The translations under genes were made by a program, and so were the position numbers. 64,000 nt of DNA, taken from NCBI GenBank assembly GCA_943787795.1, contig CALSNU010000001.1, positions 1,024,001 through 1,088,000 of the forward strand. The letters are read 5' to 3'. The notes beneath the pieces are model-generated. The model was not told the origin of the DNA. It did no database searches and worked only from the letters and a program-made list of their open reading frames with translations. Positions 22,791-26,461 of this stretch are shown one piece after another. The number at the start of each line of letters is the position of its first letter. The stretch's first letter is position 1. Origin of the DNA: an uncultured bacterium (GTDB lineage Bacteria > Planctomycetota > UBA1135 > GCA-002686595).

Positions 22791-23858
22791 TTGCCCGAAC
22801 TCACGATCCCCCTTCGCTCCCATGAGGAAGCGATCCTGGTCCTCGGTCCCTACGACCGTTACGCCCGCCTGCTCCGACAGGATCTCGACATCGAGATCTA
22901 CGCCCGCGCCGGCAACCTTCGCTTGAAGGGGGCCGACAGCGGCATCCGAGCCGCCTCTGAGCGGATCGAGCACCTGCTTGGCAAGGCCCGGAAGGGGCGG
23001 GACATGAGCGTCCGGGAGATCGAGGGCATCCTCTTGGATCGGACACCTGTGACCACGGAGACGGCGACCGTGGGGGGCGAGCGTCGAGGCGCAAGGGACG
23101 CCGGCAGCTCTGGCTCCTCGGCCTCGGGGTCTCGAATGGGAGGAGCGCACCGGCCCGCGGTCGTCCGCTTCCGCCCGCGCCCCGTGGAGCCGCGCAGCGA
23201 GAACCAGCGGCGCTACTTCGAGGCTATCGAGAAGAACGACCTGGTCTTCGGCCTGGGACCTGCGGGGACAGGGAAGACCTACCTCGCGGTTGCCGCGGCG
23301 GTCCAGCGCCTCCGGCGCGGCAAGGTCCGGCGGCTGATCATCACGCGCCCCGTCGTCGAGGCGGGGGAGCACCTTGGATTCCTGCCCGGCGATCTGCAGC
23401 AGAAGCTCAACCCCTACCTGCGGCCGATCTACGACGCCCTGCGCGACATGATCGAACCTGAGGACCTGGCTCGGATGGAGGAGGCGGGCATCATCGAGAT
23501 CGCGCCCCTCGCGTACATGCGCGGGCGAACCCTCTCGAACGCCTTTGTGATCCTCGATGAGGGGCAGAACACCACCGCCTCGCAGATGAAGATGTTCCTG
23601 ACCCGCCTGGGTGAGGGGTCGAGCATGGTGGTCACCGGCGACCCGACGCAGAACGACCTGCCGCGCAGTCAGCGCAGCGGGCTGGTCGATGGGTCACGGC
23701 GGCTCAGGGGATTTGAAGGGGTCGGCTTCATCGAGTTCGACGCCGCCGATGTGGTGCGACACCCGCTGGTGGCGCAGATCGTCCGCGCCTACGACCGTGA
23801 CGGGCGAGATCGGAACGGGGCGCCCGCAGACCTTCCTGCTGAAGGGGCCGAAGGGTGA
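22791..23858 (+). CDS. phoH: PhoH-family ATPase (YbeZ-like)
   Basis: '[13 protein letters not shown]', 'LGFLPGDL', '[10 protein letters not shown]', 'ILDEGQN', 'VVRHPLV'; upstream of ybeY. Confidence 0.95.
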
Positions 23859-24322
23859 CCGAAGGGTCCGTCGCCTGGACGGTCCCGGACGCGCCCGGAG
23901 ACCTCGGTGAGGTGGAGGCGCTCGCCGCGCTCGCGGCAGCGCTCGCGCACGGGGAGGCGCCGGAGCTCCGGGTGGACGTGATCTTCGTCGACGATGCCGC
24001 GCTTGCCCGGCTTCACGGGCAGTTCCTCGGCGACCCGACCCGGACGGACGTGATCACCTTCGATCTGCGGGAGGACGGAGCGCCGGATGAGCACGGGCCG
24101 GACGGGGAGATCTACGTGAGCGTCGAGCGAGCGCGGGAGGTGGCCGCTGGTCGCGGCGTTGAGCCGGCACGAGAGCAGGCTCTCTACGTGGTGCATGGCG
24201 CGCTGCACCTCGTCGGCTTCGACGACCATGACGCGCGTGATCGCGCCCTGATGCGCGCCGCCGAGGCCGCGGTCATGGGGCGCCTCGGCTACGCCGAGGA
24301 CCTCGGCGAGCACGAAGTCTGA
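23855..24322 (+). CDS. ybeY: rRNA maturation RNase YbeY
   Basis: 'TDVITF', 'GEIYVS', '[12 protein letters not shown]'. Confidence 0.95.
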
Positions 24323-24633
24323 GCCACATCTGCGCGCTATCGGAGGGACGCGGGACCCCCTCGCGACGGTTTTCGATCCAAAAAACTACCGGTCTTTCTG
24401 CGGGCTGTGCGCGCATGGATAAGTGCCTTCGAATGGCTTCAGAGGGCGATTCGACGCGCTTCTGGATGAGCACGAGTTGAGATCGAAAGGCGCCTAGCGT
24501 GGCGCTGGGGGAGGAACTGTTGAACGGGCTGGTCTCGTAGCGGTACCTACTACTGACAGAGGACACTTCGAGCCATCGCTCGGCGCCCCGGCGGACCGCC
24601 TGGTGACCTCCTTGAACCTGCACCTCACTCGAA

Positions 24634-25491
24634 TTGACGCCCCAACCCGACCCCACTCCCGAGCCCGAGACGCCCCCTCGGACGTCGAGCAGCAGCGCGA
24701 CTTCCGCGGAAGCCGAGGCTGACCCGCTTGTTGAGATGGTGGACGCACTGTGGGCGGCCTTCCGATCCGAGCCGGGCGACGAGACGCGGAATGCGCTCGT
24801 CGAACACTACCAGCCGCTGATCAAGCAGATCGTTCGGCGGTTCGGAGCCCGACTCCCGCGGACCGTGGATCGCGGAGACCTGCTCACCGCGGGCAACGTG
24901 GGCCTCATCAGCGCAGTGCGCGGGTTCGACCCCGAGCGCGGGGTCCGCTTCGAGTCGTACTGCGAGCTGCGCGTGAAGGGCGCGCTCCTGGATGAGCTCC
25001 GCTCCCAGGACTGGCTGCCGCGTCCGTGGCGCCAGAAGATCGAACAGCAGAAGCGCACGGTGGAGCAGCTGCGGCGTGAGTGGGGGAGGAACCCCAACGA
25101 CAACGAGGTCGCGTCGGCGATGGGGTTCGACCTCGACGTCTACCAGCAGACCTTCGGCGTCGGGCTCCCCGGCACGCCAAGCGGGTCCATGCCCGCTGAC
25201 GACGGCGGCGAAGACGGCGGCACGGCCAGCCCCCTCGACATCGTCCAGGATCCGGGTGTGGACGCGCCGGGCGAACGGCTCTCCCGGGACGAGCTCATGA
25301 AGCTGGTCTCCCAGCGGATGTCCGATCAGGAGCGTCGCATCGTCTACCTGAAGTACTGGGAGGAGCTGCCAATGCGTGAGATCGGCGACCTCACGGGGCT
25401 CTCCGAGTCACGGGTTTGCAAGATCCACACGCGGCTCATCGAGCGTCTGCAGGATCGCTTCCGCGCGCACGAAGCCGACTCGCTGGTCTAG
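24634..25491 (+). CDS. RNA polymerase sigma factor, FliA/WhiG (sigma-28) family
   Basis: 'RNALVEHYQPLI', 'FDPERGVRFESY...VKGALLDELRSQDWLPR', region 4 'YWEELPMREIGDLTGLSESRVCKIH'; start uncertain (TTG 24634 or ATG 24736). Confidence 0.93.
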   Translation: MTPQPDPTPEPETPPRTSSSSATSAEAEADPLVEMVDALWAAFRSEPGDETRNALVEHYQPLIKQIVRRFGARLPRTVDRGDLLTAGNVGLISAVRGFDPERGVRFESYCELRVKGALLDELRSQDWLPRPWRQKIEQQKRTVEQLRREWGRNPNDNEVASAMGFDLDVYQQTFGVGLPGTPSGSMPADDGGEDGGTASPLDIVQDPGVDAPGERLSRDELMKLVSQRMSDQERRIVYLKYWEELPMREIGDLTGLSESRVCKIHTRLIERLQDRFRAHEADSLV

Positions 25492-25510
25492 GCGCGCGCG
25501 GGGTCCGGGG

Positions 25511-25548
25511 GAAAGAGAGAGGGCCCGGCACCTCTCGGCACCGAGCCC
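25511..25548 (-). terminator. Intrinsic terminator on the minus strand
   Basis: Minus strand GGGCUCGGUGCC-GAGA-GGUGCCGGGCCC-UCUCUCUUUC: 12-bp stem whose G-U wobbles pair only in this orientation, GNRA loop, pyrimidine tail. Confidence 0.7.
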
Positions 25549-26150
25549 CCCCAGGACTCCCGATCTCGAGCCACGAAGGCTCTCCGGGAACGCAAATCGA
25601 GCACGATCAGATCGCGTTCGACCCCCTTGCGTCCCGAACGGCGGAAACCGCCGGACCGAGGTGCGTAGGCGACGGAAGGGTCCCTGACCTCCCGACGTCG
25701 CACGACTCCTTATCCTCGACACCCGAACACGCCGTCCCCACGACGGCTCGGGATCCGCTCCTCCTCTCAAGAGACGCCCGTGTCCCCACACGACCGTCTC
25801 CCACATCACATCTCCCCTGACCGAAGCCGTGGGGGGACGCGAGTTCTACGGACCCGTCAGCGCCCTCGCCGCCGTGCTCCAACGAAGAGTCGCCGCTCAG
25901 CCCTGAGGCGTGACGCGGGTGGACCGTCGTGGTGGTGAAGCAAAGCATGGGAGCCGGTGGATCAGGCGGAGCCACCTCGAATCCCACCCCGGCAAAAGGA
26001 AACCGTCCCGGAGCCGGCCGAAGCCGACCCCGGTCCGGAGGGCAGATGAGGAACGGTTGTTCCTATCCGACCCACGGTCCTCAGTCCGAGGCGGGACCTT
26101 TGACGGTCCCGCGGCGCTCCTCGGACGACGATCCCTATGGGTCGGGCGGT

Positions 26151-26227
26151 CGACATTCGGAAACTCGGCTGCCCGCGAGGGGCCCGTGGCTTTGCGTCCC
26201 GGACTTGCGTCCGGTTTGCCTTTGTCG
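26151..26227 (-). promoter_or_regulatory. c-di-GMP-I (GEMM) riboswitch aptamer
   Basis: Minus strand CGACA-AAGGCAAA-CCGGAC-GCAA-GUCCGG-GACGCAAAGCC-ACGG-GCCC-CUCGC-GGGC-AG-CCG-AGUUUCCGAA-UGUCG; matches the GEMM consensus (GGCAAA..GNRA..GGGACGCAAAGC..AG..GUU.CCGA); P1 CGACA/UGUCG. Confidence 0.92.
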
Positions 26228-26247
26228 TGTCGCCGTTGGAGCGCCAC

Positions 26248-26275
26248 AGGATAGCCAGGAAATTGCAATTGGCAA
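26248..26275 (-). promoter_or_regulatory. Putative sigma70-type promoter driving the riboswitch transcript
   Basis: Minus strand TTGCCA-N16-TATCCT in an AT-rich patch; predicted +1 near 26242. Confidence 0.55.
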
Positions 26276-26461
26276 ATGGGGGCGCGGGTTTGGGGGCGGA
26301 AACGTTTTCCAGTCGTCCCCATGTGTCGCGCTAGCATGGGATTACAAACCGATCATGTACGCCGAGCGGCGCGGGGATTGGGGGTCATGCGCAGGCGCAG
26401 CACAATCTCGCGCGCGGCTCTTCTCCGAAGCCGCGCCTCCTCCCTGACGATCTTCCTCCAC

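Follow-up and report, generated by a model that had tools for sequence, protein, structure and literature searches.

A c-di-GMP-I riboswitch heads a structured, probably translated RNA with a repeated hairpin array in one family of Planctomycetota

Introduction

Which product does a c-di-GMP riboswitch control when no recognizable protein gene follows it? The question arises in the window analysed here, a stretch of 64,000 nucleotides from an uncultured planctomycete, in which a minus-strand unit of ~730 nt lies between a sigma-factor gene and a phosphodiesterase/alkaline-phosphatase-type gene. The initial annotation, made from the window alone, regarded the unit as a structured non-coding RNA and proposed that the regulated product is the RNA itself. 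We compared the unit with its homologues; all coordinates refer to the window. In the literature, apart from the motif lists in supplements of large screens, we found no description of this RNA.

Homologues and distribution

A DNA search gave matches in 33 of 36 genomes of the family and, outside it, just aptamer-sized or short pieces. Homologues were taken from these matches, from sigma-gene loci in genomes and metagenomes, and from regions cut out behind the sigma gene, for 120 of the 150 matches listed. This yielded 133 elements carrying two or more loop hairpins, of which 112 were unique; they form 68 clusters at 75% identity. Related sequences are not independent, and clustering lessens the effect of kinship without abolishing it. 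A covariance model of the 3' domain was positive in 29 of 41 family genomes, in one of 109 other genomes of the order and in one of 147 non-family genomes of a phylum sample, the latter two being marginal, and it detected a single copy in the window's own genome. Genus g53 lacks the RNA beside the sigma gene in 8 of 8 cases, and genome-wide in the four genomes searched. Judged from these searches, the RNA is real and conserved across one Planctomycetota family.

Transcription unit and aptamer

The unit (26242-25511, minus strand) comprises a promoter, a c-di-GMP-I aptamer and a terminator, and its boundaries are supported by comparison of the homologues. The promoter (26275-26248) has the -35 box TTGCCA, a 16-nt spacer and the -10 box TATCCT, with the conserved spacer motif TGC(A/G)A(T/C)TTC at 26267-26259. 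It is the sole sigma-70-like site within 3 kb (0.1 in shuffles). A strict pattern recovered the three-part motif in 40 of the 68 cluster representatives, and it also precedes versions without the aptamer. At the other end, an intrinsic terminator hairpin with a GAGA loop and a pyrimidine tail (25548-25511) ends 20 nt before the stop codon of the convergent sigma gene; with this type of tail, it was missed by a simple terminator scanner. Promoter and terminator had both been proposed in the initial annotation, and both were recovered in the sequence. Folding of the whole unit gave z = -3.87 (20 shuffles), and that of the 3' domain did not discriminate between the strands (-2.9 vs. -3.1).

The aptamer (26229-26155) scores above the gathering thresholds of two Rfam covariance models, c-di-GMP-I-GGC (RF03167; 68.6 bits, threshold 59) and c-di-GMP-I (RF01051; 65.7 bits, threshold 35), which confirms the earlier assignment of the 5' domain. 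It is the only c-di-GMP-I aptamer of its genome. In the alignment, equivalents of G20, A47 and C92 are present by eye (GGCAAA, GCAAAG, CCGA), at what we take to be the corresponding positions of the window's aptamer. The A47 equivalent departs from the G of the GGC-variant consensus. The three residues are among those named for the ligand pocket of the c-di-GMP-I riboswitch (PMC9049102). The aptamer presumably binds its ligand. The six GGDEF matches in the genome show only that c-di-GMP can be produced.

Apart from the aptamer, Rfam gave no match to an RNA family in the 64-kb window and nothing credible in the unit at E values up to 10. This outcome had been predicted, and it leaves the rest of the unit outside any Rfam family. 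An SAH riboswitch was rejected (19.1 bits vs. a threshold of 37, E 0.65), the shared GAGCGC word being GGGGC in most homologues; symR, Ms_IGR-2 and sX5 were weak matches well under threshold. A tmRNA was also dismissed: ARAGORN detected neither tRNA nor tmRNA in the 64-kb window, so that the tRNA-like domain is absent, and the C-termini of the ORFs are unconserved, i.e., there is no conserved tag.

Shorter versions of about 380-590 nt keep the promoter, the AUG, the array and the terminator and lack the aptamer (genera g54, g10, g18, g61, g70, g65, and g78); Rfam found no aptamer in L201, L235, L270, L274, or L304. Since some lineages have the array without the aptamer, the array is the core of the RNA and the riboswitch an optional module. 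The aptamer-less set includes three of the five flagellin-less lineages that retain the RNA (g54, g10, g18), plus flagellated lineages, and a tie between aptamer loss and flagellin loss is suggestive only.

Leader switch

The 5' switch strand (26242-26229) consists of GCUCC (26242-26238) and GGCGAC (26234-26229) and begins at the predicted +1 near 26243-26242. The latter segment, GGCGAC/GAUGAC, has two competing partners, one right after the aptamer and the other 25 nt further. Pairing with the near partner (26154-26149) extends P1 of the aptamer and would represent the ligand-bound state. The far partner, GUCGUC-CGA-GGAGC (26129-26116), pairs with both 5' segments, presumably in the ligand-free state, and this helix is incompatible with both the near helix and the nested stem behind it. 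In the near helix, 92% of cells are paired and two of six pairs have changed on both sides. The far helix, scored on 25 sequences (14 from the window's own genus), is paired in 97.5% of 275 cells, with 16 double changes vs. 5.8 in shuffles. The two leader folds are 4.5 kcal/mol apart. Comparison of the homologues thus supports two mutually exclusive, covarying helices, i.e., a two-state switch.

A 9-bp stem, GCUCCAACG/CGUUGGAGC, had previously been proposed to close this domain. It was found to be a feature of the window only, as among 15 homologues of the same genus no sequence offers a 9/9 partner or any partner at that place. The 5' GCUCC has its conserved partner at 26120-26116 (GGAGC). 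For this 5-bp helix alone, covariation did not reach significance across 49 clusters (p 0.06), with partners picked by a regular expression and some of them wrong.

The expression platform (26145-26003) contains the nested stems (26145-26067), a hairpin (26063-26050), a pyrimidine tract and a further hairpin (26033-26008). A U-rich tail behind the leader hairpin occurs in the window and a few homologues only; as it is not general, intrinsic termination in the leader is unlikely. Rho was found in 5 of 5 genomes. Given the rare U-tail and the presence of Rho, we infer that regulation acts at the AUG or via Rho rather than by intrinsic termination. The C-rich Rho-loading signal near the AUG is modest (C/G about 1.5-1.7). 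In one subgroup (at least 12 of 71), the helix GCGAACGCC:GGCGUUCGC surrounds the AUG. A candidate 'VRPY' arrest motif was rejected: its nucleotides (GTTCGCCCC) are invariant and complement GCGAACGCC, which precedes the AUG, and several homologues have the word in another frame.

The aptamer fold, the ligand-contact positions, the switchable P1 and the location 5' of an AUG are those of c-di-GMP-I riboswitches (RF01051/RF03167). Unlike the usual member, this one is followed not by a protein gene but by a structured RNA whose ORF is unconstrained, and it is optional in the family. The output of a c-di-GMP riboswitch would here be an RNA instead of a protein, which is new.

Hairpin array

The 3' half repeats a unit of a purine linker and a long hairpin with a UGGGGA hexaloop (two to three hairpins), followed by a multibranch domain and the terminator. 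Hairpin 1 (25800-25771; loop UGGGGA, 25788-25783) is followed by the Shine-Dalgarno-like linker GAGGAGGAG (25766-25758), hairpin 2 (25752-25722; loop UGGGGA, 25740-25735), the linker AAGGAG (25713-25706) and hairpin 3 (25703-25661), whose loop is CAGGGA in the window (25686-25681) and UGGGGA in most homologues. The terminal multibranch domain (25660-25557) includes a hairpin at 25653-25639, a hairpin with the stop codon in its loop, a hairpin at 25582-25568, and a CUCGG/UCGGG closure. A fourth G-run lies within it as the bulge CGCAAGGGGG (about 25631-25621). Elements have two to seven sites, with a mode of four.

The initial annotation had listed many of these stems. They were located on the minus strand, including the nested stems, the cUUCGg hairpin at 26033-26008 and the twin GGGGA hairpins; the inventory was incomplete in that it overlooked the third loop, the fourth G-run, the GGAGGAG/AAGGAG linkers and the open frame described below.

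Covariation was scored on 36 of 60 extracted core segments, segments of another register or subtype being left out. In the array, 77% of 1117 cells are paired, with 169 double changes vs. 75 in shuffled alignments. Slid controls gave 30-49%, a favoured comparison because the hand-set structure came from the same sequences that were scored. Helices 2 and 4 show many double changes and four to six pair types, and the G-U changes agree with the minus strand, as had been proposed. Unguided RNAalifold on the gappy alignment returned seven pairs, three of them outside the hand-set model. The hexaloop is constant and its closing pair covaries: among 127 loops, 84 are GUGGGGAC, 16 are UUGGGGAA and 27 have others. 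By covariation, a conserved structure beyond the aptamer, as suspected earlier, is thus supported in the array as well as in the leader.

Constant loops on freely covarying stems in variable number are a hallmark of multi-site sequestering RNAs such as CsrB and RsmZ. This RNA resembles CsrB/CsrC and RsmX/Y/Z in its GGA-containing repeats in loops and linkers, their variable copy number, and its own promoter and terminator. It differs from them by the UGGGGA loop (the Csr/Rsm loop consensus is ANGGAN), by the lack of CsrA in the searched genomes, by a reading frame from end to end, and by the leading riboswitch.

Open reading frame

A frame of 113 codons (25948-25607, minus strand) runs from an AUG across the entire array to a UGA in the loop of the last hairpin. 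The AUG lies in an A-rich CC-AUG context that matches the genes of this genome, in which CCC-AUG, the context found here, is the commonest. By crude gene calls, its starts typically follow CC, and ~9% have a Shine-Dalgarno-like word despite a canonical 16S tail.

In each cluster, the AUG was chosen by a context score blind to ORF length, which gave a candidate in 66 of 68. The frame crosses the last loop without meeting a stop in 58 of the 66 clusters, vs. 27 and 26 for the other two frames, and upstream stops number 14 vs. 79 and 81 in 6292 codons. In 56 of 66 clusters, this frame meets its first stop within an interval of 35-115 nt ahead of the terminator tail, and the other frames do so in 6 and 14; the interval was picked after viewing an earlier count, and all 66 clusters were included in the final one. 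Relative to the last G-run motif, the stop tracks the AUG in all three frames (21/9/12, with seven clusters dropped and three AUGs replaced). Close relatives with a frameshift terminate at a neighbouring stop. About 10 of 66 clusters violate the frame rule; some are wrong AUG picks, and L180 is the one genuine break. Net length changes are divisible by three in 12 of 19 cases in the ORF vs. 11 of 32 in the leader; single 3n gaps (41/215 vs. 23/195) derive from pairwise-alignment counts that are too noisy.

The peptide behaves differently from its frame. Its dN/dS is 0.75-1.44 vs. 0.02-0.07 for the sigma gene (nine non-independent pairs), and Met1 is the only invariant residue among 52 homologues. 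None of the 52 peptides matched Pfam, the best neighbour in a protein atlas (0.81; query a frame-correct stretch shifted by three codons) was not significant, and the exact sequence is absent from called proteins. Mean GC1/2/3 of the frame is 0.68/0.66/0.71 over the 52 homologues, in line with the earlier remark that ORFs here lack the strong GC3 bias of the flanking genes, and its codon use is unbiased.

Hence, comparison supports selection on the open frame and on the position of its stop, and a peptide free of selection. As the AUG-to-stop frame is kept by selection, the RNA is very probably translated, and it probably codes for nothing functional. The term non-coding therefore no longer applies in its strict sense, an AUG-to-stop frame over the 3' domain being maintained by selection. 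A conserved ORF in place of conserved base pairs had been named as an outcome that would speak against a structured RNA; the frame and its stop proved to be conserved, the amino acids are unconstrained, and the base pairs covary. The suggestion that the RNA itself is the regulated product is supported, as are the covarying structure, the lack of amino-acid selection and the lack of an Rfam family.

The conserved AUG, open frame and stop, and the fact that riboswitches usually precede ORFs, could also mean an ordinary riboswitch-controlled small-protein gene, in which a disordered peptide matters by length or composition and the hairpins just stabilise the mRNA. We consider this very improbable, given the dN/dS of about 1, tolerated frameshifts, a length of 55-165 codons among homologues, array motifs spread over all three frames (33/37/32), and no match in Pfam, the atlas or the called proteins.

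The comparison thus offers a clear example in which selection acts on being translated and leaves the product free, over 55-165 codons and with a stop codon pinned to RNA structure whatever the frame. This blurs the coding/non-coding divide on which gene callers and ncRNA screens are built.

Model of function

The reading we prefer, tentatively and with slightly less than even confidence, is a multi-site sponge whose sites are reset or protected by ribosome transit, with c-di-GMP gating translation. The RNA would carry four to five repeated sites, made up of UGGGGA hexaloops whose stems vary, purine linkers and a single G-run bulge, and this array would titrate a putative partner, most likely a protein that binds RNA and is not CsrA. 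With the sites embedded in a sacrificial reading frame, ribosomes would initiate at the AUG, unfold each hairpin and leave just beyond the last site. Because a crossing ribosome would melt all sites and be released behind the last, translation could strip or refold them, or it could protect a transcript of this length and structure against Rho and decay, with the peptide as a by-product. In most lineages, the upstream riboswitch would toggle the leader folds, probably setting access to the AUG. Control at the AUG, the sponge function and a protein as the partner are what these patterns suggest. In a related but more doubtful version, the RNA would represent a new class of regulatory RNA, a decoy swept by ribosomes: translation would erase the function of the array, and translational silence (imposed by c-di-GMP or starvation) would activate titration of a global RNA-binding regulator that replaces CsrA in this family.

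CsrA was absent from all 61 genomes searched (controls positive), with no match at E 10 in the window's own genome, and Csr/Rsm Rfam models did not match the RNA at E up to 10. CsrA was therefore rejected as the partner, which would have to be another factor. RRM proteins were dismissed as well, being equally frequent in genomes without the RNA. UGGGGA hairpins show no enrichment across the genome (2.7% vs. 2.1-2.9% with control hexamers) and no clear excess near starts (14 vs. 3-14), so that a set of mRNA targets is not visible. In flagellin leaders, inspected by eye, the hairpin is absent. The constant UGGGGA loop may serve as bait for the factor that regulates this family post-transcriptionally, a widespread group of mostly uncultured planctomycetes without CsrA. 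What is new is the architecture; if the sponge model is true, the logic resembles that of CsrB, and the novelty resides in the gating.

The array could instead act by base pairing, as a translation-gated sponge for C-rich sRNAs or antisense to C-rich mRNA starts. UGGGGA complements UCCCCA-UG, the genome's starts are CC-AUG with Shine-Dalgarno use of 9%, and the fourth motif is frequently AUGGGGA. RosA of Bacillus subtilis is described as binding C-rich sRNAs through single-stranded GGGG regions (PMC8216469). As portrayed there, it shares with this RNA multiple single-stranded G-rich regions and a small ribosome-associated ORF, and it differs in its length of about 229 nt, in an ORF of 7 codons and in having C-rich sRNAs as known partners (PMC8216469); the present RNA has long covarying stems, 55-165 codons over all sites, and no partner found. 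An intergenic scan for C-rich partner RNAs returned many unspecific C-rich stretches and no distinct C-rich-loop RNA, an outcome too unspecific to speak for or against such a partner. TCCCC is found ahead of 15 of 1316 starts, roughly twice the rate at internal AUGs, an enrichment below that of other NNCCC words, and a long-stemmed hexaloop whose first and last bases do not vary suits readout by a protein better. We regard base pairing as rather unlikely.

Only a little less probable, and likewise unlikely, is an action of the array on the ribosome (a pause or hold by linkers and strong hairpins, as sensor or store) or on itself, four G-runs forming a G-quartet core that ribosomes melt. Of 52 ORFs, 48 contain linkers perfectly complementary to the anti-Shine-Dalgarno sequence (GGAGGAG/AAGGAG), in a genome whose anti-Shine-Dalgarno is canonical but little used, and the modal G-run count is four. 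The linkers, however, have no start codon at a usable distance downstream, the site number ranges from two to seven instead of being constant at four, and the third loop of the window has three G.

The RNA also has parallels outside the Csr/Rsm RNAs and RosA. In leader-peptide attenuators and tmRNA, ribosome movement matters, and the stop codon of tmRNA lies within a hairpin; unlike these, the present RNA has no downstream gene, no conserved regulatory codons or tag, and no tRNA-like domain. SgrS, RNAIII and SR1 are dual-function RNAs. As in such RNAs, one transcript would be both translated and regulatory; their peptides or proteins function, and here the peptide is unselected. The Campylobacter flaA mRNA is presented as a further translated and regulatory RNA (PMC4894983).

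Sigma-factor link and genomic context

The convergent neighbour (24634-25491, plus strand) encodes a FliA/WhiG-type sigma factor with sigma-70 regions 2-4. At distant homologous sigma loci of Planctomycetota, the sigma gene itself carries a c-di-GMP-I aptamer in its 5' leader in 17 of 56 cases (observed at L057, most of L060-L070, L072, L080, L092, L095, and L104). Family-like loci have it upstream in none and convergent in 50 of 72. A connection of c-di-GMP with the sigma factor therefore looks old and phylum-wide, and the RNA may have acquired its aptamer locally. In Streptomyces, c-di-GMP controls WhiG, which resembles this riboswitch-sigma link.

Both arrangements also favour an antisense-acting riboswitch, with read-through into the convergent sigma gene or interference with it, and c-di-GMP riboswitches are given as the class most frequently found antisense (PMC9943018). 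We judge this quite improbable: a strong terminator closes the unit ahead of the sigma gene, insertions that place the unit 1.3-16 kb away leave it intact (G011, G008, G178, G162, G020), aptamer-less versions persist, and the array and its frame are left unexplained.

The stretch is present in 20 sequencing runs from 8 studies, 14 of them recorded as RNA. Contigs from four RNA runs (four studies) gave pieces spanning 25448 to 26294, and two of these runs have no coverage elsewhere in 9 kb; the runs were selected by this very stretch, and depth cannot rank genes. One contig, from 25448 to 25674, crosses the terminator ahead of the sigma gene. As the contigs carry neither strand nor ends, they show presence in RNA libraries only, and DNA carry-over is possible.

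The gene order phoH-ybeY-sigma (22791-25491) is found at 68 of 71 family-like loci vs. 1 of 49 distant ones. In the family genomes G087 and G142, a single in-frame stop interrupts the match to the sigma gene (TAG, TGA). A flagellum-specific role was rejected, since the RNA is retained in flagellin-less genera (flagellin in 0 of 5 genomes of g54 and 0 of 3 of g10). Flagellin is missing from 18 of 174 family genomes, several of which still have a FliA/WhiG-type sigma factor. In the window's own genome, a flagellar locus (L032:4068-11455, G000:C7) contains three tandem flagellins, then fliD, fliS, fliO and fliP; CsrA was not found there. The only other strong match to the promoter motif in this genome precedes a prepilin-like operon (L353:13300-16677; G000:C1 about 800300-803680, plus strand), whose prepilin-like genes bear N-methylation motifs. 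Co-regulation of the RNA and type IV pili is possible.
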